Under the pieces are notes generated by a model, which saw nothing but the letters and a program-made list of their open reading frames with translations, ran no database searches and was not told where the DNA came from. Of a stretch of 64,000 bases of DNA, positions 291-12,927 are shown one piece after another; position 1 is the first letter of the stretch, and every line of letters begins with the position of its first letter. Origin of the DNA: an uncultured Actinomycetota bacterium (GTDB lineage: Bacteria > Actinomycetota > Humimicrobiia > Humimicrobiales > Humimicrobiaceae). A program made the translations under genes and the position numbers. The stretch is taken from assembly GCA_964603595.1 (NCBI GenBank), contig CAZRVN010000004.1, positions 12,680 to 76,679 of the forward strand, read 5' to 3'.

Positions 291-2114
291 TTAATTCCTT
301 TTTTCTTTCCATTCCATTAATTCTTCCAGGGAGAACGTATTTAAAATATCCTTTTTCTCAAGTCCGGCCCTTCTCGCTATATCTACCCCCAATACAATCA
401 TATCCATGTTATTGGGACGGTGCGCATCTGTATTTATAACCAGTTTAACACCCATTTTCGCAGCTTTTCTTGCATTTTGTTCATTAAGGTCCATTCTTAA
501 AAAATATGAATTTATCTCCAGCGCTTTACCGTTTCTGGCTGCTGCTTCAATTAACCTGTCAATATCAACAGAATAAGGCGCCCTGCTTCCAAAAACAGCA
601 CCTGTGGGATGGCCTATAAAATCAATATATTTATTTTCAACCGCACTTACTACCCTATCGGTATTTTTAGTTTTTGAATTCAGATAAGAAGAGTGCATTG
701 AACCAATAGCTATTTCCATCTTCTTGATTATACTTTCAGGATAGTCAAGTTTGCCCGCTCCCTTTATATCTATCTCTGAACCCATTAAAATATGAAAATC
801 CTTATACCTGGATTTTAATTTGTTTATGTAGCCAATCTTTTCTAAAACCTTTTTATCATCAAGACCCCTGCCGTAATAATTGCTTACCGAGTGGTCTGTA
901 ATTGCCAGATATTCATAATTAAATTTTTTTATTATCCCAATCATATCATCAAGTTCCAGGGAACCATCGCTCCACCTAGAATGAACATGCAGGTCACCTT
1001 TTATATCATCCACAGTCAAAAGGGAAGGAAGCAAATTTTTCCCTGCCATTTCTATTTCATCCCGTCCCTCCCTTAATTCAGGAGGTATATACTCAAGACT
1101 AAGCATATTATATATTTTTTCTTCGGGACAGGAGCCGCCATCTGGCAATAAGCCCGCTTCCTGCCATTTATCTTCATCCGCATGATTGTTAACTTCAATC
1201 CTGCCATTTTTTATATATCCTTTTCTAAAAGCTATTTCCTCCAGTTTTTTTATATGTTTTTTGCTCCCTGTGGTATACAACATATCATAAGCCCAATTTT
1301 CCCTGCTGCTTATAATAAACTCCACTTCTATACCAAAAACAGTTTCGAACCTCGCGCTTGTACTCTCCTGCCTTATATCATTGCTCTTAAATCTTTTTAT
1401 AAAATTGAGTGCCTTTAATTCATCAAGCAGCTTCTCACTTTTTAATGAATCGTAAGCATTACTGTTAAAGCCGGGTAGTATAAGTATATCTATATCCTTA
1501 ACTACAGATTTTTTCCTTCTTAAGGAGCCGACTGTAACTGCTTTTTCTATACTTTTTATTTTAAAAAGGCAATTTTTTATTTCATCAATATAAAGTTCAA
1601 CTCTCCAGCGCGGATAAAGACCTTTTATACTTTCCATATAATCTATAGAGTCCTTTAGTCTATCATTATAAAAGGGATCGCTTTTACCAGAACCTGAAAC
1701 ATTTTCTGCAACAACATCTAAAACCTTGCTGTCCATACCACCCGCAAGTTTTTCTTTTAGTTCTTTAAGACCTTCTACATTTAAAGTTTCATAAACTTTA
1801 AACATTTTCCTTTTACCAAGGCCGCTTATTCTAACTAATCTTATTAAATCCTCGCTGTATCTTGATTTTAATTCTTCATAAAATCTGATACTTCCCCTTT
1901 CCATATATTCCATTACATACTCAAAGGCAAGCCCTTCCATGCCGTACAAATCTTTGATTTTTCTACTTCTGTAGATTTCTTCAATTCTTTTAGGTGTGTC
2001 TCTAAGCGTTCTTGCTGCCCCTATTAAATTTGAGACAGTTTTTATATCTGCACCGCCGGATTTTTTAACTTCTGCAATATCCGTGAGGATATCTGCCAGT
2101 TTCAGATTGATCAT
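291..2114 (-). CDS. Non-canonical PolX-PHP protein (degenerate polymerase site, intact PHP domain)
   Basis: GSLRRKKSVVKDIDIL palm motif; the third Asp position reads IEVEFII; YTTGSKKHIKKLE; PHP motifs DLHVHSRWSDG, ITDHS, EID, MHS, GHPTG, EINS, NTDAH. Confidence 0.9.
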   Translation of the reverse strand: MINLKLADILTDIAEVKKSGGADIKTVSNLIGAARTLRDTPKRIEEIYRSRKIKDLYGMEGLAFEYVMEYMERGSIRFYEELKSRYSEDLIRLVRISGLGKRKMFKVYETLNVEGLKELKEKLAGGMDSKVLDVVAENVSGSGKSDPFYNDRLKDSIDYMESIKGLYPRWRVELYIDEIKNCLFKIKSIEKAVTVGSLRRKKSVVKDIDILILPGFNSNAYDSLKSEKLLDELKALNFIKRFKSNDIRQESTSARFETVFGIEVEFIISSRENWAYDMLYTTGSKKHIKKLEEIAFRKGYIKNGRIEVNNHADEDKWQEAGLLPDGGSCPEEKIYNMLSLEYIPPELREGRDEIEMAGKNLLPSLLTVDDIKGDLHVHSRWSDGSLELDDMIGIIKKFNYEYLAITDHSVSNYYGRGLDDKKVLEKIGYINKLKSRYKDFHILMGSEIDIKGAGKLDYPESIIKKMEIAIGSMHSSYLNSKTKNTDRVVSAVENKYIDFIGHPTGAVFGSRAPYSVDIDRLIEAAARNGKALEINSYFLRMDLNEQNARKAAKMGVKLVINTDAHRPNNMDMIVLGVDIARRAGLEKKDILNTFSLEELMEWKEKRN

Positions 2115-2192: not shown

Positions 2193-2858
2193 ATGAAAGA
2201 AATAAATAATTCCAACATCAAAGACCATGATGAAAAATACCGGATACTCAGGGAGAATATGGTAGAAAATCAGATTGTTTCACGCGGTATTTTAAATAGC
2301 AGGGTCCTTGAAGTATTAAGAAAAGTTCCACGGCATATATTTGTAGATGAGGAATATATTGACTCAGCTTATGACGACAGGCCGCTTCCCATTGGTTCCG
2401 GGCAGACAATATCACAGCCGTATATAGTTGCACTTATGACAGAAAGCCTTGAACTCTCCGGAAATGAGAAAGTCCTGGAAATTGGCACCGGCTCGGGCTA
2501 CCAGGTAGCCATACTCGCCGGGCTGGCAAAAGAAGTCTATACCGTGGAAATAATCACTTCCTTATATAATAAAAATAAAAAGCTTCTTTCTGGATACAGC
2601 AATATAAAAATGAGCAACCATGACGGTTACCTTGGGTGGGAAGAATATTCCCCATACGACAGAATAATTGTCACCGCAGCACCTGACCACATTCCGCAAA
2701 CATTTATAGAACAGTTGAAGGACGGCGGGATTATGGTCATCCCCGTTGGCCCTTCAAGCTGGAGTCAGGTCCTATACAAGGTAATTAAAAGCAAAAATAG
2801 CATAAAAAAAATAAACCTGTGCGGCGTGGCTTTCGTGCCCCTGACCAGGATACAGTGA
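2193..2858 (+). CDS. pcm: Protein-L-isoaspartate O-methyltransferase
   Basis: VPRHIFV, AYDDRPLPIGSGQTISQPYIVA, VLEIGTGSGYQ, YDRIIVTAA, QLKDGGIMVIPVG. Confidence 0.95.
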   Translation: MKEINNSNIKDHDEKYRILRENMVENQIVSRGILNSRVLEVLRKVPRHIFVDEEYIDSAYDDRPLPIGSGQTISQPYIVALMTESLELSGNEKVLEIGTGSGYQVAILAGLAKEVYTVEIITSLYNKNKKLLSGYSNIKMSNHDGYLGWEEYSPYDRIIVTAAPDHIPQTFIEQLKDGGIMVIPVGPSSWSQVLYKVIKSKNSIKKINLCGVAFVPLTRIQ

Positions 2859-3009: not shown

Positions 3010-4500
3010 TTATTTAGTGTTATCAAAACTAAATTTTGCTTCCAGACCAATATGATCTGATACCGTATAGCTGATAAGAGAGCAGCTATTCCTGCTATCA
3101 GCCTGCATATAACAGCTTATCCCGGATAAAAACTGCTGGAAAAAGCAGGTACCGAAGTTGTATGGTATATCAGGATTTTCAGGTACCGGATTAATCGATT
3201 CCGGATCTATAACCGGATTACCGGAACCACCAAAGTAAAAAATATAATCAATTCTCTGAGGTCCGCCTGTTTCAACCGCAATTCGATTGCCCAGATCGCC
3301 ATAGGAATTCTCACTGCCGGTATTCCAATCCTTGCCTATCCATGTGAAACCCGGATCATCACCTTTTAAATCAAGCCATATATCTTCCAGGTAAATTTTA
3401 CCTTCCATATCAACTTCGGTAAAATTTTTAATCTCCCGACAAAACTCTCCATACTCCTGATGAGATACAGAAGTCAGATCAAAATTGCCGTTCTGCCCAT
3501 ATCCATCCGGAGGAGAAATTATTCCGGAAGAGTCCATCCAATCTTCATTTATATCAGCTGCAACGTTAAAGTCTCCCATAATTAAAATAGGATGGTAATT
3601 TTCTTCTTCCGGCTTAATAATCATTCCAATAAAATTTAGTAATTCTTTCAGGTTTTCCATGCGTGTCTCACTGTAATCATGAGACTGAAGATGGGTATTA
3701 AAAACATGTATATAATCCTCTTTTGACCGACCAATCTGAATCCTGGCGTATACCACACCTTTGTTGGCAAGAATATCTGTTCCGCTGCTTTCTGAAAAAC
3801 TAAACGCGCTGCATTCTGTTATAGGATATACTGATAATATCACCAGACCGCCGTCCTGCCTGATAGAAAGTCTTCCGCCTTCAGGACCCATTACATAATA
3901 AGGGCTACAAATAAGTCTTGCTTCCTTCCGGTTTGGCTTACAATCAATTACATGGACACCCAGCCAGCTGCCCTGCTCCGATAGTTCTGCAACATCCATG
4001 GCACTGGTAAGAGGTTGCAATATTTCTTTATCGGGATGTTCCATCGAGCCGTACCAGCTATTGAAATAATCATCTTCCCATTCGGCAGATGTTCCGCTAT
4101 TTATCCTGTCGTAAATTTTATTATGCCAGGCTGAAACAATTTGATTCTGACTGCTCCCGGCAAATACTTCCTGAAGTCCTATAATTCCATACCCTCCCAT
4201 TATTAAATCAATTATGCCATAGGTACGCTGGCGGTAAGCAGGTGCTACAAACGAAAATGGTATAAGCATTGTATTCTGGGTAAGAACTTTAACAGTTCCT
4301 TCCATACCTGAACCTGTAGATTGATATGCTTTAGAGTTATTTCCAGAATATTCTTTTTCCTGTTTTTCCGAAACTAATGATTTTATATCGTTCGTACATC
4401 CACCGGCAGTAGCAGCTAGTGAAGAAAAAATTATGATAACTATTACAGCAACAATATTTCCATATTTGAAAAACACCCTTTTTTTATATACCCATCTCAT
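3010..4500 (-). CDS. Endonuclease/exonuclease/phosphatase (EEP; sphingomyelinase/DNase I-like) family, probable lipoprotein
   Basis: TQN, GLQE, FNTHL, MGDFN, RIDYIF, SDH catalytic motifs; N-terminal hydrophobic segment ending AGGC. Confidence 0.8.
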   Translation of the reverse strand: MRWVYKKRVFFKYGNIVAVIVIIIFSSLAATAGGCTNDIKSLVSEKQEKEYSGNNSKAYQSTGSGMEGTVKVLTQNTMLIPFSFVAPAYRQRTYGIIDLIMGGYGIIGLQEVFAGSSQNQIVSAWHNKIYDRINSGTSAEWEDDYFNSWYGSMEHPDKEILQPLTSAMDVAELSEQGSWLGVHVIDCKPNRKEARLICSPYYVMGPEGGRLSIRQDGGLVILSVYPITECSAFSFSESSGTDILANKGVVYARIQIGRSKEDYIHVFNTHLQSHDYSETRMENLKELLNFIGMIIKPEEENYHPILIMGDFNVAADINEDWMDSSGIISPPDGYGQNGNFDLTSVSHQEYGEFCREIKNFTEVDMEGKIYLEDIWLDLKGDDPGFTWIGKDWNTGSENSYGDLGNRIAVETGGPQRIDYIFYFGGSGNPVIDPESINPVPENPDIPYNFGTCFFQQFLSGISCYMQADSRNSCSLISYTVSDHIGLEAKFSFDNTK

Positions 4501-4691
4501 TTAAAAAAATTTTTTAATTTTTTCAGATATAATATACGGATTTCTACTGCCATTTGCTATTCTAACCCAAGTTATTTTGGTATACAATACATACAAAAGG
4601 CGGTCAGTATATATTTTAAAATAAATATATACCCTATGGTCACTAATAGTAGTAATCATTTTAATAAATTTAAAAGTAACCACTATATATT

Positions 4692-5780
4692 ATGAGAACA
4701 GGAACGATGAACCTTCCCCTTCATGGAGGTAAAGCTCCTTTATGGTTATTTACCAGGATGAAAAAACTCTCCAGGGAAATAATTTCTATGATTGTTTCAG
4801 AATATGGCAGCCGCGAAATGCTCTGCCGGCTTTCAGACCCGCTGTGGTTCCAGGCCCTGGGGTGCGTGCTGGGTTTTGACTGGCACTCAAGCGGGGTAAC
4901 CACTACCGTCTGCGGAGCACTAAAAGAATCAATAAAAGGCCTTGAGAAAGACCTTGGTTTCTTTATAGCCGGCGGTAAAGGCGGAACTTCAAGAAAAACC
5001 CCTTCTGAAATTGAGAACGCTGCCAGCCTTATGGGAAAAGACTTTAATAATCTTATATACAGCAGCAAAATAGTAGCAAAAGTTGACAGTAACGCCCTGC
5101 AGGACGGTTACCAGCTTTATCACCATACCTTTATTTTCACCACTGACGGAAAGATGTGGTCAGTAATACAGCAGGGAATGAATGAAGAAAATAAAATGGC
5201 AAGAAGGTACCATTGGATATCGGAAGGCCTTAAAAGTTATATACTTGAGCCGCACAGGGCGATATGCTGCAATAAAAAAGGTAGGGCAATAAACCTTGTA
5301 GCCACCGAAAGCGAAAAGGCAAGAGAAACGGTTACCCTGCTCTCCTGCGAAAAACCAGTAAACATTATAAAAGATTTAAAAAAAGTAAGAAATTTTTTAG
5401 ATAATCACTATACCCTTCCTACCAGACATCATATAAGATTGCATGACATGGACTTAAAAAGGCTGGAAACAATCTTCACCTCCACTTACCAGAGGAAACC
5501 TGAAAATTTTGAGCGCCTCCTTGCCTTAAAGGGTGTTGGTCCCAAGACAATAAGAGCTCTGGCACTTATTTCAGAACTGGTATATGGAGTAAAATACAGC
5601 ATAAAGGACCCTGTAAGATTCAGTTTTGCACATGGGGGCAAGGACGGCATACCCTATCCGGTGGACAGGGAAAACTATAACCGTTCCATTGAGATTTTAC
5701 ATAAAGCAGTCAGGGATAGTAAAATTGGCAGAACAGAAAAAATAGGAGCAATAAAAAGACTTTCTTATTTCTATGGATAA
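4692..5780 (+). CDS. DUF763 family protein (C-terminal helix-hairpin-helix)
   Basis: RTGTMNLPLHGGKAPLWL, GFDWHSSGVTT, QQGMN, RRYHW, LKGVGPKTIRALAL, FSFAHGGKDGIPYPVD. Confidence 0.85.
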   Translation: MRTGTMNLPLHGGKAPLWLFTRMKKLSREIISMIVSEYGSREMLCRLSDPLWFQALGCVLGFDWHSSGVTTTVCGALKESIKGLEKDLGFFIAGGKGGTSRKTPSEIENAASLMGKDFNNLIYSSKIVAKVDSNALQDGYQLYHHTFIFTTDGKMWSVIQQGMNEENKMARRYHWISEGLKSYILEPHRAICCNKKGRAINLVATESEKARETVTLLSCEKPVNIIKDLKKVRNFLDNHYTLPTRHHIRLHDMDLKRLETIFTSTYQRKPENFERLLALKGVGPKTIRALALISELVYGVKYSIKDPVRFSFAHGGKDGIPYPVDRENYNRSIEILHKAVRDSKIGRTEKIGAIKRLSYFYG

Positions 5781-7512
5781 AGAAGAAATAATAAAAATCT
5801 TAAAAGATATAAGCGTATTCCTGGAACTAAAGGATGAAAACCCCTTTAAAATCAGGGCTTACCAGAATGCGGCCCGTGCACTGGAGTCATCTGATATTGA
5901 TTTAAATAAAAAATTAGAAATAAAAGACCTCACTGATATAAAAGGTATAGGGTCACATATCACGGAAAGAATAAAAGAATTAACCAGCGAAGGTAAACTC
6001 AAGCTCTATGAAGACCTTAAGAAATCTATTCCTTCCGGCCTTGTAGAAATGCTCTCGATCCCATCCATGGGCCCCAAAAAAATAAAATACCTTTATGATA
6101 ATCTTGGCATAAGCACCGTCGGAGAGCTTGAATATGCCTGCACTGAAAACCGCCTTCTAGATTTGCCTAATTTTGGTAAAAAGACACAGGATAATATCCT
6201 CAAAGGAATTGAGGTATTAAAAAAATACAAAGGTAAATATCTTTATGCAAAGATTATAAATGAAGCAGATGATATCCATAAAAAAATACAGGATTTCAAA
6301 TACACAAAAAGGTCCAGTCTCGCCGGAAGTGTCAGGAGGAAGAAGGAAATTGTTAAGGATATTGACATAGTAGCAAGCAGCGGACAGCCAGTTAAAGTAA
6401 TGGATTTTTTCACCGGCCTGGACGAGGCAGAAGATATAATTGCAAAGGGTGATACAAAATCCAGCATCAGGCTAAAGTCCGGTATTAACGTGGATATAAG
6501 GATTGTCGATGATAACCAATATCCCTACGCCCTTCTCCATTTTACCGGCAGCAAGGAACATAATACCGCCATGAGAACCACAGCTAAAAAAGATAACATA
6601 AAAATGAATGAATATGGACTTTACAAAAATGACCGGCTAATTAAATGTTCTGACGAGAAAGATATCTACGATTATTTTTCAATGGACTGGATACCTCCTG
6701 AACTCAGGGAGAATTACGGTGAAATTGAAGCCAGTAAAAACAAAAAACTTCCCCGGCTAATTGAAGGAAAAGATATAAAAGGTATATTCCATATACACAC
6801 CAACCATAGCGATGGCAACAACAGTTTAGAGCAGATATGTAACTATCTTAAGGAAAATGGCTTTCAGTATGCCGGTATAAGCGACCACAGTAAAACTGCC
6901 TCCTATGCAGGAGGAATAAAAGATAAAGAAATTGATAAATATTTAAAAGAAATAGATAAAATGAACAGGGAGCTTTCCGGATTCAAAACCTTTAAAGGTA
7001 TTGAATCCGATATCCTTCTGGATGGTAAACTTGATTATAAAGACAGTATTCTTGAAAAGTTTGATTTTATAATCGCTGCAGTTCATTCCAATTTTAATCT
7101 AAGTGAAGAGCAGATGACAAACAGGATTATAAAAGCCATTGAAAATAAATTTACTACCATTCTGGCCCATCCTACTGGAAGATTGCTTCTGGCAAGGGAC
7201 CCCTATAAGGTTGATATGACAAGAATAATAAACGCAGCTGCAGAGAGTAATGTAGATATTGAACTAAACTCAAGCCCTTACAGGATGGACCTTGACTGGA
7301 GGATGTGCAGGTACGCAAAGGAAAAAGGAATAAAGATCTTTATAAACCCGGACGCTCACAGCCTAAAGAATTTAGATGATTATAAATTCGGCGTAAATAT
7401 TGCAAGGAAGGGCTGGCTTGAAAAAAAAGATGTTCCCAATACCTTTTCTGTTGATAAAATAAGTAAATACCTGAAAGATAAAAAAACAACAAAACAGAAT
7501 AAAATAATTTGA
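5773..7512 (+). CDS. polX: DNA polymerase X with PHP 3'-5' exonuclease domain
   Basis: FKIRAYQNAA, KGIGSH, GSVRRKKEIVKDIDIV, NVDIRIV (third Asp), HFTGSKEHNTAMR; PHP HIHTNHSDG, SDHS, AHPTG, NPDAH. Confidence 0.95.
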   Translation: MDKEEIIKILKDISVFLELKDENPFKIRAYQNAARALESSDIDLNKKLEIKDLTDIKGIGSHITERIKELTSEGKLKLYEDLKKSIPSGLVEMLSIPSMGPKKIKYLYDNLGISTVGELEYACTENRLLDLPNFGKKTQDNILKGIEVLKKYKGKYLYAKIINEADDIHKKIQDFKYTKRSSLAGSVRRKKEIVKDIDIVASSGQPVKVMDFFTGLDEAEDIIAKGDTKSSIRLKSGINVDIRIVDDNQYPYALLHFTGSKEHNTAMRTTAKKDNIKMNEYGLYKNDRLIKCSDEKDIYDYFSMDWIPPELRENYGEIEASKNKKLPRLIEGKDIKGIFHIHTNHSDGNNSLEQICNYLKENGFQYAGISDHSKTASYAGGIKDKEIDKYLKEIDKMNRELSGFKTFKGIESDILLDGKLDYKDSILEKFDFIIAAVHSNFNLSEEQMTNRIIKAIENKFTTILAHPTGRLLLARDPYKVDMTRIINAAAESNVDIELNSSPYRMDLDWRMCRYAKEKGIKIFINPDAHSLKNLDDYKFGVNIARKGWLEKKDVPNTFSVDKISKYLKDKKTTKQNKII

Positions 7513-8213
7513 AAAATAATATGAATGCTAAAAGAAAAGCTAAAGGAGAAAATACTTCATATAAGGCTGCATATAAACCTGCATTAGAAAATATTGATAA
7601 GATAATTGATATCCTTAACCACGAATATCCAGAAACAGTTTCAACTTCACTCAAACACAAGAATGCATACCAGCTGCTTATCTCTACAATCCTTTCTGCA
7701 CAGAGCACTGATAAGCTGGTAAATAAAGTTACTCCGGAGCTTTTTAAAAAATACAAAACCCTTAAAGATTTTGCAATTGCAGATATAGCCCGGCTGCAGG
7801 AAGATATAAAATCCACCGGATTTTATAGAAACAAGGCAAAAAGTATAATTAGTTGTTCAAGGGATATAATGTATAAGTTTAACGGTGTAATGCCTGATAA
7901 TATTGAAGACTTAACCTCACTTCACGGTGTGGGAAGAAAGACCGCCAATGTCGTGCTTGCCAATGTATTCGGCAAACAGGCAATAATAGTGGATACCCAT
8001 GTCAGAAGAATTTCATACAGAATTGGGCTTACTATAAATAAAGACCCTGTTAAAATTGAGTTTGACCTTATGAAAATAATTCCAGAGAATAGCTGGAGTT
8101 ATTTTTCCCACAGAATAATTGCACTGGGACGAACAATATGCCTGGCAAAAAGCCCGAAATGTCCTGCATGCAAACTTTTAAAATACTGCAGGTATGGCCA
8201 GGAAAATACCTGA
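7509..8213 (+). CDS. nth: Endonuclease III (start may be ATG 7521)
   Basis: LISTILSAQSTD, GFYRNKAK, LHGVGRKTANVVL (HhH Lys), VDTHV, CLAKSPKCPACKLLKYC 4Fe-4S motif. Confidence 0.95.
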   Translation: MKNNMNAKRKAKGENTSYKAAYKPALENIDKIIDILNHEYPETVSTSLKHKNAYQLLISTILSAQSTDKLVNKVTPELFKKYKTLKDFAIADIARLQEDIKSTGFYRNKAKSIISCSRDIMYKFNGVMPDNIEDLTSLHGVGRKTANVVLANVFGKQAIIVDTHVRRISYRIGLTINKDPVKIEFDLMKIIPENSWSYFSHRIIALGRTICLAKSPKCPACKLLKYCRYGQENT

Positions 8214-8214
8214 T

Positions 8215-8634
8215 TTAAATATCCTTGCCCAGTGTAGATTTTGCCAGCTGGGCATGCTTTACGCCTTTTACTACTTTAAGTTTATTTTCAAGTCCAAACA
8301 ATTCAGAAATCATACCTTTTACTACAATTACCTCCAGGCAGGTTCTATGGTCAAGATGTATATGCTGGCTTGATATTATGACCTTATAGTGGTCGTGCTG
8401 GATATTTATTATATTATCAACCAGCTCTTTTTGATGATGGTCGTAAACAAGGATTATGGCACCGGCCACCATCTCATCCTCTTCGCTTACCCACTGGTTA
8501 TCAACCAGCTCCTTCCTTATTAAATCCCTTAAAGCTTCAGAGCGGTTCCTGTAACCCCCGCTTTTAACATAACTGTCAAATTTCTTTAGTAACTTTTTTT
8601 CTATAGATACCCCGAACCTTTTTAATGCACTCAT
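8215..8634 (-). CDS. nikR: Nickel-responsive transcriptional regulator
   Basis: RFGVSI ribbon, NRSEALRDLIR, YDHH, HIHLDHRTCLEVIVVKG. Confidence 0.93.
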   Translation of the reverse strand: MSALKRFGVSIEKKLLKKFDSYVKSGGYRNRSEALRDLIRKELVDNQWVSEEDEMVAGAIILVYDHHQKELVDNIINIQHDHYKVIISSQHIHLDHRTCLEVIVVKGMISELFGLENKLKVVKGVKHAQLAKSTLGKDI

Positions 8635-8693: not shown

Positions 8694-9452
8694 TTACCTG
8701 CGCATCAACGCATAAAGAAATGTATGTTTTTTTCTATTAAATGCTTCCTTACCATCAGGGCCTTTTAGGGAAATCCTTTTAAAACCAGAATTTTCAGCAA
8801 TTTTTAAAAACATATTTACTTTTAAAGTACACATGTGCAAAGAGTCCACAAAAAAATCTATAATTTCATCATTGCTAATTACAGTTACTATAAAATCAAA
8901 CCTGGTTTTAATTTTCCCATATTCAGAGTGCCTGATAAGAACGTAGCTCCTACCATCCTTTTTAAATGTCTTTGGGTTGTAGTACCTGTTTTTTTCCATA
9001 ATATCAGAATTAAAATTGAGTAGCCGGACTATTGCAAGACCACTTGCTGTTAGCTTATTTCTTATTTTCTTAAGAGCCAGTTTAACATTCTTACGCTTCC
9101 CCAGCATTGGGAGTGTATCCCCCAGACAGGTTACAAGGTCAAAAGGACCTTCGGATATCCTGTCCAATCCTTCAAGTTTTACTTTAAGCGTAGTGATGCC
9201 GGAAGCTTCTACTTTATCTGCTCCTGGATGCCTCGCCGGGCCCTTTAAAAGATTTACTGCGGTCACTTTTTCTGCATAACCGGTAAAAAATTTTATATGA
9301 TTCCCGGTCATATAACCTATATCAAGCACACTTTTAATATCATTTTTTTTAAATAAATCTTTAAAAAATTCAACCTTGGGCCCCGGTCCTCTACTCTCCT
9401 CTATCAATAAATTACAGAGCTCCCGGATTAAAATAGAATTATTTTTCTCCAT
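8694..9452 (-). CDS. Class I SAM-dependent methyltransferase-like protein
   Basis: VLDIGYMTG (variant motif I), FDLVTCLGDTLPML, LTASGLAIV; resembles glycine/sarcosine N-methyltransferase-like proteins. Confidence 0.65.
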   Translation of the reverse strand: MEKNNSILIRELCNLLIEESRGPGPKVEFFKDLFKKNDIKSVLDIGYMTGNHIKFFTGYAEKVTAVNLLKGPARHPGADKVEASGITTLKVKLEGLDRISEGPFDLVTCLGDTLPMLGKRKNVKLALKKIRNKLTASGLAIVRLLNFNSDIMEKNRYYNPKTFKKDGRSYVLIRHSEYGKIKTRFDFIVTVISNDEIIDFFVDSLHMCTLKVNMFLKIAENSGFKRISLKGPDGKEAFNRKKHTFLYALMRR

Positions 9453-9698: not shown

Positions 9699-10760
9699 AT
9701 GAAAATAGCAATTACTGCAGATATACACTTAAAAACTAAAGAAGAGTCCCCCGAGAGATGGAATGCTCTATCAAATATTCTTGATAAAATGCTCTCTGAA
9801 AATATTAATACACTTATTATAGCCGGCGACCTTTTTGATAAAGAAAGTCAGAACTATTCTGATTTTGATAAGTTTTGCACTAAAACAAAATACACCAGCA
9901 GCAATGTAAAATTCTATATAATCCCGGGTAATCATGACCCCTCTATAAGGCAGGAATATTTTACCTCCGGGAATATAAAAGTTTTCAGTAGCCCTGAAGT
10001 TCTTACATCAGAAAGTTCATCTGCGGCTTTCTTTTTTACACCTTACCTGCCGGCAAGTTCTATGGGGGAAATTATAGCCGAACATAATAAAAAGCTAACC
10101 AATACATGGATTTTGATAGGACATGGCGATTATGCATCAGGACTGCACAAACCCAATCCTTATGAACCCGGTATTTACATGCCCTTAACCAGAAACGATA
10201 TACAGTATTATAACCCCGCCAGGGTTATCCTGGGACATCTTCATAAAAAAATAAATCTCGGTAAAGTTTATTATCCCGGCTCGCCCTGCGGTCTGGATAT
10301 AAATGAAACCGGTAAAAGGAGCTTTTTAATTCTGGACGCAGGCACGCTGGAAATAACAGAAAAGCAAATTGATACCGACATTATATTCTTTAATGAAAAC
10401 CTTATATCACTCCCCACCACTAATGAATTTGAATTTATAAAAAAAGAGATAAGCAAAATGATAGACAAATGGGATATATCCAAAAACGAGATACCAAAGG
10501 TAAGACTCCGCTTAAAGATCAAAGGATATACTTCCAATAAAATAAAACTTTCCGACACAATTAATAAAGCACTAAAAGATTTTTCTTTTTATAATAATGA
10601 GCAGCCGGATTTAACTGAAGTTTCGTTATTTAATGACCCGGAAAGAATAACTATTATAGAAAATCTAAAAAATGAGATTGAAAAACTTGAATTAGAAAGT
10701 GAGATCTTCTCAAAGGAAGATATACTGGAAAAAGCACTCCACATAGTTTTAAAGCAATAA
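9699..10760 (+). CDS. Mre11/SbcD-like metallophosphoesterase nuclease (YhaO-like)
   Basis: ITADIH, IAGDLFD, PGNHD, IGHG, LGHLH, YYPGSP. Confidence 0.88.
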   Translation: MKIAITADIHLKTKEESPERWNALSNILDKMLSENINTLIIAGDLFDKESQNYSDFDKFCTKTKYTSSNVKFYIIPGNHDPSIRQEYFTSGNIKVFSSPEVLTSESSSAAFFFTPYLPASSMGEIIAEHNKKLTNTWILIGHGDYASGLHKPNPYEPGIYMPLTRNDIQYYNPARVILGHLHKKINLGKVYYPGSPCGLDINETGKRSFLILDAGTLEITEKQIDTDIIFFNENLISLPTTNEFEFIKKEISKMIDKWDISKNEIPKVRLRLKIKGYTSNKIKLSDTINKALKDFSFYNNEQPDLTEVSLFNDPERITIIENLKNEIEKLELESEIFSKEDILEKALHIVLKQ

Positions 10761-10794
10761 AGGTAACAATTATTTAAGATACAGGGAAATTTAA

Positions 10795-12927
10795 ATGGGA
10801 GTTAAAATTGATAAAATATCAGTAAAAGACCTGGGGCCAATTAAGGAATTTTTGGCCGCCTTTGGAATATTTAACCTTATTTACAGCAAGAACGAAAGGG
10901 GAAAGACTTTCTTTACTGAATTCTTAATACGCTCACTATTTAAAAATACCAGCCGCTGGAGTTATTTAAGAAGCGGGGGAAAAGGAAAGGTCACTTTAAG
11001 CGGCCTTGATAAACACCCTGTTGATTTTACCTGTTCCTCTCCAAAGAAGCTTGAAGATTACTGGGAAAAAAGTGAGAAGGGGCTCCCTCTATCCATGGCA
11101 AAACTTTTGATAGTAAAAGGCGGAGAAGCCGGGATCGAGGATAATGGGAGCATAAGCAAATTTTTAATCAAGGAAGTTTTATCCGGTATAAATATTCTTG
11201 ATAAGATTGACAGCGACAGTAATATCCAGTCAACTGTTAAGTCTGCAAAAATCACTAACAGCCGCATTGATATAAATGATAAAGGAGAAGGGAAAAAATA
11301 CCATGACATCAAAAATAAACTGGAAAAAATTGATAATCTTTTTGAAGAAATAGAATCAGGATATACACAGGGGATATTAAAAACTTATCAGCTGAAAAAA
11401 GAAACACTGCTTGATAAATTAGCAAGACTTAAACAGGCTAAAAAGCATCTTGCATATTTAATTTCAGAAGAAATCAAAAAATTAAATTCAGAGCTATCCG
11501 ATATTCCTGACAGTGAATTAAACAGCATAGAAAAAGAAATTTTTCTTTACAGAAGCAAGAAAAACACATTAAGCAAGACGGAAAAAGATTATAAAGATGC
11601 ATCTCTTAAAAGCAAAGACTTTAAATGGCTTGAAAGCGCACTATCCCATTACAGAGAGCTGCTATCAAAAAATGTAAAAAGACCGGGAAAAATCCTGCCT
11701 GTACTTTGCGGATTGTTTACAGCCAGCGGAATAGCTGCTTTCGCAGCAGCGCTTTTCATGTACCGGAATACTACAGAATCCCTTATGCTATTATTACTTG
11801 GGATCATAGGTTTCTCCTTTTTAGGTCTAATTACATCCGCACTCTTTTACTTTAAAAAACTCTATAACTTTTTAAGGCAGGCAGGGCAAAATGAAGAATT
11901 AAATAGAATAAGGGTAGAATTTAAAAAAAGAACCGGTAAAAATCTTGCAGATATCTCATCCCTGGAATCAACCCTAAACGGGCAAAGGGAACACAACAGC
12001 AGACTTTCATTATTGGAAAGCCAGATTAATCCTCTTAAAAAGGAACTGGGTGATTCTATTTTTAATATCAATCAGAAAATAAAAAAGCTCTGCCGAAAAG
12101 AAATTGGAGAAAAGGAATGGGATGAAAAAATAGAAAGTTTAAAAAAGAGAAATGCTAGTTTGAAAAACGAGGTTCATAAACAAGAAATAGAATTATCTAA
12201 ATTGCAGTTATCCGAGCAGGATTATCTTGCCGAAGAGACAGATACCGCATACAGCCGGGAAGAGCATGAAAAAACTTCAGACGAGATTGCAGATACCCTG
12301 GAAGAAATAAAAAATCAGGAAGATAGAATCCAAAATTTAAAATATAAAATCTGTGAAAAGACCGGAGATGACCCCAGCATTGGCTGGGAAGAGCTTATTA
12401 ATAATCTACAGAGTAAAAGAGGCGAAACTGAAAAGGAGCTTAAAGATATTTCTGCCGGTATAATAGCCGGCCTTACAGTACATAATGTTATTTTAAGTTT
12501 GCGCAGAGAAGAAGACCAGAAAATAAAAGAAGGATTAAAGTCAAAAGTTGTAACAGGACCTTTGAAAGCTATTACCCAGAGATATGACAACCTTACTATT
12601 AAAAATAATAACCTGATTGTTTCAGACCCCTACGACAGCTTTGATATAAAGGATTTAAGTACCGGAGCAGTTGAACAGGTAATGCTTGCGTTAAGGATCG
12701 GCTTTACCTCAAAATTATTAAAAGAAGACAGCCTGTTTTTAATCCTTGATGATGCATTCCAGCATTCGGACTGGGAAAAACGCGAAATTATTATAGAAAA
12801 GCTGGCAGAAATTGCAAAAAATGGATGGCAGATAATCTACCTCACCATGGATGACCATATAAAAGGATTATTTGAGAAAAAAGGCAGGGAATTTAAAAAA
12901 GGTGGATATAAAAGTTTCGAGTTGTAA
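10795..12927 (+). CDS. Rad50/SMC-like ATPase (YhaN/SbcE-like) with central coiled coil and two TM segments
   Basis: N-terminal Walker A variant YSKNERGKT; C-terminal LSTGAVEQ signature, LILDDAF Walker B; long coiled coils; hydrophobic segments in the middle. Confidence 0.82.
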   Translation: MGVKIDKISVKDLGPIKEFLAAFGIFNLIYSKNERGKTFFTEFLIRSLFKNTSRWSYLRSGGKGKVTLSGLDKHPVDFTCSSPKKLEDYWEKSEKGLPLSMAKLLIVKGGEAGIEDNGSISKFLIKEVLSGINILDKIDSDSNIQSTVKSAKITNSRIDINDKGEGKKYHDIKNKLEKIDNLFEEIESGYTQGILKTYQLKKETLLDKLARLKQAKKHLAYLISEEIKKLNSELSDIPDSELNSIEKEIFLYRSKKNTLSKTEKDYKDASLKSKDFKWLESALSHYRELLSKNVKRPGKILPVLCGLFTASGIAAFAAALFMYRNTTESLMLLLLGIIGFSFLGLITSALFYFKKLYNFLRQAGQNEELNRIRVEFKKRTGKNLADISSLESTLNGQREHNSRLSLLESQINPLKKELGDSIFNINQKIKKLCRKEIGEKEWDEKIESLKKRNASLKNEVHKQEIELSKLQLSEQDYLAEETDTAYSREEHEKTSDEIADTLEEIKNQEDRIQNLKYKICEKTGDDPSIGWEELINNLQSKRGETEKELKDISAGIIAGLTVHNVILSLRREEDQKIKEGLKSKVVTGPLKAITQRYDNLTIKNNNLIVSDPYDSFDIKDLSTGAVEQVMLALRIGFTSKLLKEDSLFLILDDAFQHSDWEKREIIIEKLAEIAKNGWQIIYLTMDDHIKGLFEKKGREFKKGGYKSFEL

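Follow-up and report, generated by a model that had tools for sequence, protein, structure and literature searches.

Does a protein of the DUF763 family take part in DNA repair, and if so, at which step? This question is raised by a gene cluster on a 64,000-nt stretch of DNA (the window) from an uncultured Actinomycetota bacterium, in which a DUF763 gene is directly followed by genes for a family-X DNA polymerase (PolX) and an endonuclease III (Nth). Nth excises oxidised pyrimidines and cleaves AP sites through β-elimination; the PHP domain of PolX is responsible for cleaning 3' ends or incising AP sites, and gap filling is carried out by its polymerase domain. In base excision repair (BER), glycosylase/lyase action is followed by 3'-end cleaning and then by gap filling. 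A preliminary description of the locus, which was made from the letters of the sequence, had identified the three genes, noted that they overlap, and proposed that DUF763 is a lesion-recognition or processing enzyme feeding into this pathway. The gene identities proved correct, as judged from matches to PF05559, NF006375 and TIGR01083, and the two overlaps are present in the sequence. The features discussed here are listed in Table 1.

Table 1. Features of the DUF763-polX-nth cluster and its upstream region (coordinates refer to the window; residue numbers to the encoded protein).
Feature	Position	Strand	Remarks
PolX paralogue, second and divergent	291..2114	-	607 aa; 2.6 kb upstream of the cluster
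Protein-L-isoaspartate O-methyltransferase (PCMT)	2193..2858	+	PF01135, E 1.5e-58
DUF763 (PF05559) gene	4692..5780	+	362 aa; first gene of the cluster
DWHSSG (D63-G68)	4878..4895	+	loop capping the N-end (N-cap) of helix 69-80
GGKGG glycine-rich loop (G94-G98)	4971..4985	+	after strand 90-96 (AF2 model)
RRYHW (R171-W175)	5202..5216	+	R171, R172, Y173 and H174 >=95% conserved family-wide
Helix-hairpin-helix-like motif LKGVGPKTIRALALISEL (residues 279-296)	5526..5579	+	sub-threshold PF00633; LKGVGPKT = 279-286
D306-P307 ... HGGKDGIPYPVD loop (residues 306-325)	5607..5666	+	HGGKDG = 314-319
ATGGATAA overlap, 8 nt	5773..5780	+	DUF763 TAA (5778-5780) over polX ATG (5773-5775)
polX	5773..7512	+	579 aa; family-X DNA polymerase, PHP domain C-terminal
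TTGA overlap, 4 nt	7509..7512	+	polX TGA over putative nth TTG start
nth	7509..8213	+	234 aa; endonuclease III, HhH-GPD glycosylase/AP lyase with 4Fe-4S loop

The three genes represent a genuine co-oriented cluster of one uncultured low-GC Actinomycetota lineage. Both overlaps were taken straight from the window sequence, and the ATGGATAA junction is identical in the orthologous loci L001, L002, L005 and L007, the last of which uses the ATG within it to start nth directly. The spacing between polX and nth in the orthologues amounts either to a gap of 20–48 nt or to an overlap of 8 nt, and no terminator-like sites were found on the plus strand at either gene junction. Overlaps of 4–8 nt are common in prokaryotic operons, and those observed here are consistent with co-transcription and coupling without proving either; the cluster is probably translationally coupled. 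Some gene callers start DUF763 at the ATG at position 4707, resulting in a protein of 357 aa, while the start at 4692 is supported by an MRTG/MKTG N-terminus conserved across phyla. For nth, the TTG is a plausible start, since it lines up with the ATG used by the orthologues ((M)KNNMNAKRK vs. MKNKRNIKK and MKNKKNITG), an alternative being the ATG at 7521.

PolX of the cluster matched NF006375 with 570.6 bits (cutoff 426), contains the Pfam domains HHH_8, HHH_5, thumb and PHP, and aligned over residues 3–570 with PolX of T. thermophilus (ttPolX, 3AU2; E 9.4e-111). Its palm carboxylates D196, D198 and D241 are kept and align with the segments GDLDF and QVDLR of ttPolX, as does its PHP motif HIHTNHSDG with QVHSTYSDG. 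Nth scored 242.2 bits against TIGR01083 (cutoff 211.7) and contains the Pfam domains HhH-GPD and HHH; its catalytic residues K144 (GVGRKTA) and D162 (VDTH), together with the four cysteines of the iron-sulphur loop (C211-x6-C218-x2-C221-x5-C227), are invariant across seven orthologues. The PolX paralogue encoded upstream reached 347.7 bits against NF006375, under the cutoff of 426, and E 1.8e-71 against 3AU2; its third palm carboxylate is Glu instead of Asp. It is syntenic with DUF763 across the lineage, being located upstream in L001–L003 and L005–L008. In L001 and L006–L009, the PCMT gene is located immediately upstream of DUF763 on the same strand; in the window, an EEP gene (3010–4500, minus strand) stands between them. 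The window also contains an SbcD-like gene, after which comes a 710-aa ORF without a match. Even if a repair role of DUF763 were refuted, the window would still represent an unusual island of repair genes from a little-known lineage of actinobacteria, containing two PolX paralogues, Nth and the SbcD-like gene with the ORF behind it.

The DUF763 protein matched PF05559 over the entire profile (positions 1–319 of 319; E 9.5e-136; 452.6 bits, cutoff 35.5). This family is one of the older widespread families of unknown function and, when clustered at 50% identity, divides into about 3,500 clusters from archaea and bacteria, with members in Sulfolobus, Pyrococcus, Thermoplasma, rhizobia, Xanthomonas and many uncultured anaerobes. 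Its conservation is unusually strong, with identities of 55–65% between phyla and 36–46% between bacteria and archaea, and with over 40 positions occupied by polar, glycine or aromatic residues, including clusters of Asp and His, that are at least 85% conserved across both domains. Compared with a set of 125 sequences of less than 60% mutual identity, the window protein carries the consensus residue at every position conserved to at least 85%, and the invariant columns of a 106-sequence alignment of bacterial and archaeal members agree with those of this set. The motifs DWHSSG, RRYHW, HGGKDG and LKGVGPKT, which the preliminary description had singled out as conserved-looking or HhH-forming, are all present and conserved in the family, apart from K285 of the last one, which is absent in archaeal members. 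Among the 125 sequences, S67 and G68 of DWHSSG are conserved to at least 95% and D63, W64 and S66 to 85–95%, and H65 is replaced by Asp in archaeal members. The glycine-rich loop GGKGG retains G94, G95 and G97 at 95% or more and K96 at 85–95%, and the corresponding groups in the loop of residues 306–325 are G315, G316 and P321 (at least 95%) and D306, P307, K317, D318 and G319 (85–95%).

LKGVGPKT is part of a helix-hairpin-helix (HhH)-like motif, for which matches to PF00633 were obtained at the same position in four of six diverse family members with E values of 0.005–0.03, below the Pfam threshold. The window protein scored 17.2 bits and three distant members 14.6–14.8 bits, compared with a gathering score of 24 bits; precomputed PF00633 matches were also found in the members P0032 and P0275. 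Aligning the DUF763 and Nth profiles with hhalign yielded only the hairpin region, covering 31 columns at a probability of 49.5%.

The structure prediction and fold search suggested in the preliminary description resulted in a confident AlphaFold2 model (pLDDT 85.6, pTM 0.84), whose sole internal segment of low confidence covers residues 313–321 and whose N-terminal two-thirds form an alpha/beta domain. Searching this model with Foldseek against PDB and BFVD, i.e., solved and viral structures, retrieved no relative (best PDB match at E 2.5), and a profile search against PDB gave no match below E 0.1. Neither by fold nor by sequence was DUF763 similar to a known glycosylase, nuclease, ligase or phosphoesterase, and the modelled fold is possibly new. 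Membership in the HhH-GPD superfamily was rejected because only 31 columns aligned, no HhH-GPD structure was matched by Foldseek and the N-terminal domain contains beta-strands; likewise, no similarity was seen to solved members of the EEP/Xth, TIM/Nfo, PHP, PD-(D/E)XK or nucleotidyl-transferase folds. No publication describing DUF763 or its locus tags and no description of the three-gene module were found in the literature searched, which agrees with the earlier statement that DUF763 has no established function.

A further proposal had been to analyse the neighbourhoods of DUF763 across genomes. The order DUF763-PolX-Nth was restricted to the window and the loci L001, L002, L005 and L006, all from one lineage of Actinomycetota MAGs; in L007, DUF763 is followed by Nth without PolX between them, and in L003 and L004 polX is located some kb away. 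Neither PolX nor Nth was encoded within 10 kb of DUF763 in about 66 bacterial loci from other phyla. About 90 archaeal loci had no gene for PolX, Nth, EndoQ, DUF72 or the PD-(D/E)XK protein at a distance of up to 8 kb; stomatin/NfeD, RNase P Rpp14, proteasome genes and an unknown 343-aa ORF were recurrent neighbours there. A Pfam tally of 229 DUF763 neighbours showed no dominant family. A looser proximity to genes of DNA metabolism was seen in three other cases: the DUF763 gene of S. marinus is convergent to a cluster of a Rad50-like (SMC_N/AAA_23) and a HerA-like (DUF87) gene, that of Haladaptatus adjoins orc1/cdc6, and that of S. meliloti has UdgX at a distance of 3 kb.

Other clades were found to pair DUF763 with different nucleases acting on damaged DNA. 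In Thermodesulfobacteriota, a homologue of endonuclease Q (EndoQ) is encoded directly downstream on the same strand (L022, L024, L026 and L060; gaps of 79, 85, 178 and 2 nt), which scored 199.8 bits against TIGR00375 and E 2.3e-64 against EndoQ of P. furiosus (PfuEndoQ, 5ZB8). In L024 and L060, the next gene after EndoQ encodes DUF72, which in L068 is found at position +3 from DUF763. In eight loci of Dehalococcoidia, a gene for a 441-aa PD-(D/E)XK nuclease is located directly 3' of DUF763 on the same strand, overlapping it by 10 nt in L029. The PolX/Nth, EndoQ and PD-(D/E)XK contexts belong to separate DUF763 clades, and these three or four independent operon contexts credibly point toward a function of DUF763 in the repair of DNA base damage. 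Three cases of a repair gene at position +1 among 35–41 independent DUF763 lineages correspond to P values of about 0.003–0.12, varying with the assumed share of repair genes, and the enrichment of repair genes beside DUF763 is real and modest. The neighbourhoods support the original idea in part: its linkage to PolX and Nth is confined to a single lineage, and the pairing with DNA-damage nucleases in other clades sustains it in a weaker form. Among the conditions that would refute its proposal, the preliminary description had named a lack of enrichment of repair genes around DUF763; on this point, the outcome lies between the two clear answers because EndoQ/DUF72 and PD-(D/E)XK neighbours occur in separate clades.

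The same data have to be weighed against the explanation that DUF763 is unrelated to DNA repair and serves an RNA-related, small-molecule or housekeeping role, the gene orders being accidents of single lineages that were retained since short overlaps are hard to break. The variable neighbours in most bacterial and all archaeal loci, some of the latter close to genes of the exosome, RNase P or the ribosome, would be expected from such a role, as would the modest enrichment statistic, and PCMT, which repairs proteins, accompanies DUF763 in the window lineage as constantly as PolX does. The sub-threshold score of the HhH match fits as well. However, at least three independent clades place unrelated families of DNA-damage enzymes at position +1 on the same strand, the HhH-like element is kept family-wide, and for glycosylases and other repair enzymes that work alone it is likewise typical to have no conserved neighbourhood. 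Altogether, we regard a function outside DNA repair as a serious possibility, albeit one that we would not favour.

For the reading that DUF763 is a DNA-lesion or end-processing enzyme, possibly of a new fold, we consider the chances to be about even. Of the original claim of a lesion-recognition or processing enzyme in BER, the association with repair is backed by the nucleases adjoining DUF763 in other clades, the link to Nth and PolX applies to one lineage, and DNA binding, catalysis and a role in repair are inferred. The HhH-like motif found at one position in diverse members, the strong conservation with its Asp, His, Arg, Lys and aromatic residues, and the looser proximity to DNA-metabolism genes also speak for this reading; the mostly unrelated and variable neighbours, the loss of K285 in archaea and the absence of similarity to any known repair fold speak against it. 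Such an enzyme would act on the kind of substrate handled by PolX and Nth, be it a damaged base or AP site, or a nicked or blocked end after incision. The DNA backbone would be held by the C-terminal helix-hairpin-helix element and the glycine/lysine loops (GGKGG, GGKDG and SSGxTT), and the candidate active site may be formed by the polar residues D63, D132, D138, D306, D318, H11, H145, H174, R171, R172, K96 and K317 and the aromatic residues W52, W64, Y143 and Y173. The chemistry would most probably be metal-dependent hydrolysis of a phosphodiester bond, or, less likely, hydrolysis of the N-glycosidic bond at the lesion. Because DUF763 always comes first and the partner varies between Nth/PolX, EndoQ/DUF72 and PD-(D/E)XK, it may represent the constant step, with the partner providing or completing the incision. 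We propose only tentatively the broader version, in which DUF763 would be a new structural class of repair enzyme, widespread in archaea and mostly anaerobic or thermophilic bacteria, that performs a constant step of lesion recognition, incision or end processing together with these interchangeable partners.

The constant first position next to changing enzymatic partners would also suit a non-catalytic DNA-binding accessory, i.e., a damage sensor, clamp or scaffold that recruits or stimulates the incision or gap-filling enzyme encoded downstream, and the HhH-like motif and the lack of resemblance to any catalytic fold agree with it. We consider this improbable, since more than 40 conserved positions including Asp/His clusters would be less typical of a scaffold than of an active site, and most genomes carry DUF763 without an adjacent partner. 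It is very unlikely that DUF763 supplies the nick sealing or end healing that the module lacks, as a new ligase or 5'/3' end-modifier using the invariant lysine K96 or K317, because the appeal of this idea, namely that a ligase gene is missing from all three gene clusters and that two GGK(G/D)G loops contain a conserved Lys, is outweighed by the difference of GGKDG from the KxDG motif of nucleotidyl-transferases, by Foldseek and HMM searches without a ligase, RtcB or nucleotidyl-transferase match, and by the fact that the housekeeping LigA normally covers sealing.

If the broader version holds, DUF763 could represent a step that has so far been overlooked in the excision repair of base damage in archaea and bacteria, e.g., downstream of EndoQ incision. 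With confirmation, base or alternative excision repair would gain a new class of enzyme, which could clarify how repair initiated by EndoQ or PolX is completed where the textbook set of enzymes is missing.

Several known systems can be compared with the cluster. DUF72, represented by Tm1631, is an endonuclease-IV-like DNA repair enzyme according to a computational prediction (PMC3828134, PMC4939058) and is, like DUF763, a domain of unknown function, proposed as a DNA repair nuclease by computation only; it forms a TIM barrel unrelated to the DUF763 fold and is absent from the window. EndoQ of Pyrococcus furiosus, which initiates alternative excision repair, incises 5' of uracil, hypoxanthine and AP sites (PMC4357722, PMC5961232). 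These lesions are of the same class as those of Nth and PolX, whereas the window contains no EndoQ, and DUF763 is not homologous to it. As to the HhH-GPD glycosylases (EndoIII, MutY, AlkA and Ogg), the sub-threshold HhH-like element of DUF763 is preceded by a P-x-N-F-E-x-L helix that aligns with the matching segment of Nth, and its invariant D306 follows the hairpin by about 23 residues, a spacing similar to that of the GPD Asp; the N-terminal alpha/beta domain has no counterpart in these glycosylases, and archaeal members of DUF763 lack the HhH lysine. A further system is bacterial BER by PolX-PHP, as in T. thermophilus and B. subtilis, where PolX acts with endonuclease III or AP endonucleases: the window PolX aligns with ttPolX along its whole length and keeps the catalytic residues of palm and PHP domain, and the window Nth is likewise a canonical EndoIII. 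In contrast to those systems, polX and nth overlap here in one cluster headed by the uncharacterised DUF763 gene, and a second, divergent PolX paralogue is encoded 2.6 kb upstream.

The genes for DUF763, PolX (a family-X polymerase with a PHP domain) and Nth (endonuclease III) form a real cluster of three overlapping ORFs, which were recovered at the coordinates of the preliminary description. Both overlaps proposed there were also found, one between the stop of DUF763 and the start of polX at 5773-5780 (ATGGATAA) and one between the polX TGA and a TTG codon at 7509-7512 (TTGA), and all four DUF763 motifs quoted there are present in the sequence. The TTG at 7509 is a reasonable start for nth, with the ATG at 7521 as the alternative, because the encoded (M)KNNMNAKRK aligns with the MKNKRN and MKNKKN of orthologues starting with ATG. 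DUF763 is a member of PF05559, and PolX and Nth conform to their respective families in every feature tested. By Pfam, the PolX contains HHH_8, HHH_5, thumb and PHP domains; its residues 3-570 can be aligned with Thermus thermophilus PolX (3AU2), and the palm carboxylates D196, D198 and D241 and the PHP His motif are kept in this alignment. The catalytic Lys144, Asp162 and the four-Cys iron-sulphur loop of Nth are invariant among orthologues. The cluster contains two bona fide enzymes of base-excision repair (BER), together with a conserved protein of unknown fold. A promoter scan of the region yielded signals at or below shuffle expectation. Within the 191 nt upstream of DUF763, a block of 41 nt (4558-4598) recurs without any change in the orthologous locus L005 and may represent a promoter or operator, and a perfect 10-bp inverted repeat of A/T only (GTATATATTT-N6-AAATATATAC, 4607-4632) is not conserved in L005.

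Features of the window and of DUF763 loci used for comparison (positions without a locus handle refer to the window)
Feature	Position	Strand	Size, match or context
Second PolX paralogue	291-2114	-	607 aa; NF006375 347.7 bits (cutoff 426)
PCMT	2193-2858	+	
EEP-family (endonuclease/exonuclease/phosphatase) protein	3010-4500	-	496 aa; inserted between PCMT and DUF763
DUF763	4692-5780	+	362 aa; PF05559 matched from first to last model position, E 9.5e-136
PolX	5773-7512	+	579 aa; NF006375 570.6 bits (cutoff 426)
Nth, endonuclease III	7509-8213	+	TIGR01083 242.2 bits (cutoff 211.7)
NikR-type nickel-responsive repressor	8215-8634	-	RHH and NikR_C; convergent to nth
252-aa protein	8694-9452	-	After NikR gene; only weak glycine/sarcosine methyltransferase-like match
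SbcD/Mre11-like metallophosphoesterase	9699-10760	+	TIGR00619 E 5.8e-13, below cutoff
710-aa protein	10795-12927	+	No Pfam or NCBIfam match
85-aa protein, DUF763, EndoQ homologue, DUF72	L024:9672-13165; L060:3-4670		Thermodesulfobacteriota
Beta-rich ORF of ~343 aa	L118:2764-3792; e.g., L093:9260-10339, L116:3720-4739		11 other archaeal metagenome loci besides L118

The second PolX paralogue has no Pfam match to HHH_8 or HHH_5 and carries an insertion of ~35 residues in its N-terminal half; its DxD motif is kept, Glu replaces Asp as the third palm carboxylate ('GIEVEFIIS'), and the PHP motifs are intact. This paralogue may represent a PHP-only variant with impaired polymerase function. The genes for the SbcD-like and the 710-aa protein are located 1.5 kb downstream of nth as a pair (9699-12927), which is syntenic in L002, L005 and L007. 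With two PolX, Nth and this pair, the first 13 kb of the window look like a repair-gene island. The EEP-family gene has an orthologue at the same place in L005, and PCMT directly abuts DUF763 in L001 and L006-L009; on inspection, the translated EEP protein appears to have a hydrophobic stretch near its N-terminus. The stop codons of nth and the NikR gene are one base apart. Neither tRNA genes nor Rfam families at the gathering threshold were detected in the 64-kb window, and its G+C content of 35.6% is unusually low for Actinomycetota.

To follow the arrangement through other genomes, we fetched 80 species-level DUF763 loci from the more than 586 GTDB species seen and searched their ORFs with PolX and Nth of the window. 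The order DUF763-PolX-Nth is shared by the window, L001, L002, L005 and L006, with DUF763 identities of 69-83%. In L007 (5923-6003), DUF763 is followed by nth; the ATGGATAA junction is intact and its ATG opens nth directly (MDKVPAVKNID...), polX being absent as though excised precisely between the two start regions. L003 and L004 contain polX four to eight ORFs downstream of DUF763, with nth after polX in L004, and neither PolX nor Nth was found in L008 and L009. All nine loci (L001-L009) derive from Actinomycetota MAGs and belong to one clade in the DUF763 tree. The second, divergent PolX paralogue and the PCMT gene are also kept upstream of DUF763 in this lineage, the former being syntenic in L001-L003 and L005-L008. 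The DUF763 frame of L004 (3744-4832) is seemingly interrupted, as the ORF stops at 4580 and the tblastn match continues to 4832, for which a frameshift, pseudogenisation or faulty assembly could be responsible. The linkage of DUF763 with PolX and Nth holds in the window lineage but not elsewhere, as none of the ~66 remaining loci from other phyla encodes PolX or Nth within 10 kb.

The expectation that DUF763 neighbourhoods are enriched in repair genes received a mixed answer. When 79 putative operon partners (124 families) and 150 further neighbours (202 families) were tallied by Pfam, no family dominated. The conclusion of no repair enrichment drawn from these tallies was wrong in part, because endonuclease Q (EndoQ) has no Pfam model match and was missed by them, surfacing only via NCBIfam and PDB; recurrent neighbours were found by clustering the neighbour proteins and then annotating the clusters. 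In four loci of Thermodesulfobacteriota/Syntrophobacterales (L022, L024, L026 and L060), the next gene on the same strand codes for an EndoQ homologue without a Pfam match (TIGR00375 199.8 bits; PfuEndoQ 5ZB8 E 2.3e-64, full length), separated from DUF763 by 79, 85, 178 and 2 nt, respectively. EndoQ cuts 5' of uracil, hypoxanthine and AP sites (PMC4357722, PMC5961232). A DUF72 gene follows EndoQ in L024 and L060 and lies three genes downstream of DUF763 in L068 (Dehalococcoidaceae); DUF72/Tm1631 was computationally predicted as an endonuclease-IV-like repair enzyme (PMC3828134). The 85-aa protein encoded upstream of DUF763 (adjacent in L024, with an intervening radical-SAM gene in L060) gives an EF-Tu-domain-2-like Pfam match and is probably the source of four 'RPWMISH domain' NCBIfam matches.

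In one clade of Dehalococcoidia (8 loci), the next gene mostly codes for a 441-aa protein of the PD-(D/E)XK superfamily (PF12705 E 2.5e-8), whose gene shares 10 nt with DUF763 in L029 and lies at positions +2 and +3 in L051 and L076; a divergent DNA methylase gene is located upstream in three of the eight. The PolX-Nth, EndoQ and PD-(D/E)XK contexts fall into separate clades in a neighbour-joining tree of the DUF763 proteins, with L060 apart from the other EndoQ loci, and DUF763 precedes DNA-damage nucleases in at least three clades. Assuming 35-41 independent lineages, the probability of three repair contexts amounts to ~0.003-0.12, varying with the assumed share of repair genes, so the clustering of repair contexts beside DUF763 is suggestive but not decisive. 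In Rhizobium and Sinorhizobium, DUF763 stands alone on large plasmids, and a UdgX gene 3 kb from DUF763 on the S. meliloti megaplasmid is an isolated hint. The likeness of EEP/phospholipase neighbours in Rhizobium phaseoli to the EEP gene of the window was regarded as coincidence, reflecting generic superfamily similarity only (E 0.014-0.5).

Archaeal members share 36-46% identity with DUF763 of the window. The archaeal sample comprised 11 loci from genomes or plasmids and 80 from metagenomes, and in none of them does a gene for PolX, Nth, EndoQ, DUF72 or the PD-(D/E)XK protein occur within 8 kb of DUF763; the recurrent neighbours are stomatin/NfeD, RNase P Rpp14, proteasome alpha and a small metallophosphoesterase. 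In 10-12 loci, DUF763 is directly followed in the same orientation by a beta-rich ORF of ~343 aa without a sequence match in Pfam, NCBIfam or PDB, and stomatin and NfeD genes lie upstream in the same loci. Isolated hints are a convergent cluster with Rad50-like and HerA-like genes in Staphylothermus marinus and an abutting orc1/cdc6 gene in Haladaptatus.

A DUF763 profile search of 1.84 billion representatives retrieved 3,513 clusters at 50% identity with E <= 0.001, 764 of them with E <= 1e-30. Nearly all members are single-domain proteins of 350-400 aa with 55-65% identity across bacterial phyla; domain fusions were absent from the 150 best representatives, and the longer proteins considered as fusions seem to reflect mis-called starts or short tails. 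In 125 sequences with <60% identity to each other, M23, S67, G68, G94, G95, G97, D132, Y143, Q161, G162, A170, R171, R172, Y173, H174, G315, G316 and P321 are conserved to at least 95%, and H11, W52, F53, Q54, D63, W64, S66, T70, T71, K96, Q137, D138, H145, D306, P307, K317, D318 and the HhH glycines to 85-95%. An HhH match recurs at one shared position across diverse members, below the Pfam threshold. Profile-profile comparison with Nth covered only 31 columns around the HhH (probability 49.5%), and archaeal DUF763 does not conserve the HhH lysine that would stand in for the EndoIII nucleophile. The C-terminal 'KRLSYFY' was rejected as a PCNA/beta-clamp motif, since it forms part of the final helix in the model and lacks conservation as a terminal peptide. 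The literature library searched contained nothing on the family beyond its listing in a 2005 domain census.

A single-sequence PDB search returned nothing, and the profile returned only non-significant matches to RidA-like proteins (E 0.12-0.5) and the RuvA HhH (E 1.3), which were discounted as relatives in view of these E values and the lack of Foldseek support. An initial AlphaFold2 model from a shallow alignment reached a pLDDT of 68.6 and gave meaningless Foldseek matches. The model obtained with a bacterial and archaeal alignment of 106 sequences is confident (mean pLDDT 85.6, pTM 0.84) and predicts an alpha/beta architecture for the N-terminal part (residues ~17-200) and helices for the C-terminal part, which carries the HhH, with the HGGKDG loop as the sole internal low-confidence stretch. 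Foldseek found no relative of this model in PDB (best E 2.5) or BFVD (best E 0.36). DUF763 fits neither the HhH-GPD superfamily nor any of the solved nuclease, ligase or phosphoesterase folds against which it was tested, and we provisionally regard the predicted structure as a new fold with respect to these two libraries.

The preliminary description proposed DUF763 as a lesion-recognition or processing enzyme feeding BER, which the evidence supports in part. Its more general form, a DNA repair or processing enzyme, is favoured by repair contexts in separate clades but weakened by modest statistics and the silent archaeal neighbourhoods, and we consider its chances evenly balanced, with any specific chemistry rated well below. 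The same statistics and archaeal loci leave room for the main rival, namely an incidental adjacency together with a substrate of DUF763 other than DNA, which we judge rather unlikely in view of the repeated repair contexts. An anti-phage defence role was set aside, as a PADLOC scan gave no match for DUF763, PolX or their neighbours except weak generic ones. As a repair enzyme, DUF763 would bind DNA via its HhH and its glycine, lysine and serine-threonine loops, and its conserved cluster of Asp, His, Arg, Lys and aromatic residues would serve to process one of three substrates, namely a lesion, an AP site or an already processed end. Given how many His and Asp residues are conserved, a phosphodiesterase or nuclease that depends on metal seems more likely than a classical glycosylase; the data do not discriminate between the two. 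DUF763 is the constant first member of an array with variable partners (Nth/PolX, EndoQ/DUF72 or PD-(D/E)XK), which fits a modular step common to different incision systems.

The independent repair contexts, which emerged once neighbours without Pfam models were identified, and the absence of a structural relative in the libraries searched raise the interest of this finding above that of a routine operon annotation, and the chance of DUF763 being a repair enzyme of a categorically new kind is substantial, albeit below one half. The cluster of the window is functionally alike to the PolX-centred BER of Thermus and Bacillus and to the EndoQ pathway of Thermococcales, adding to either of them an unknown first gene.
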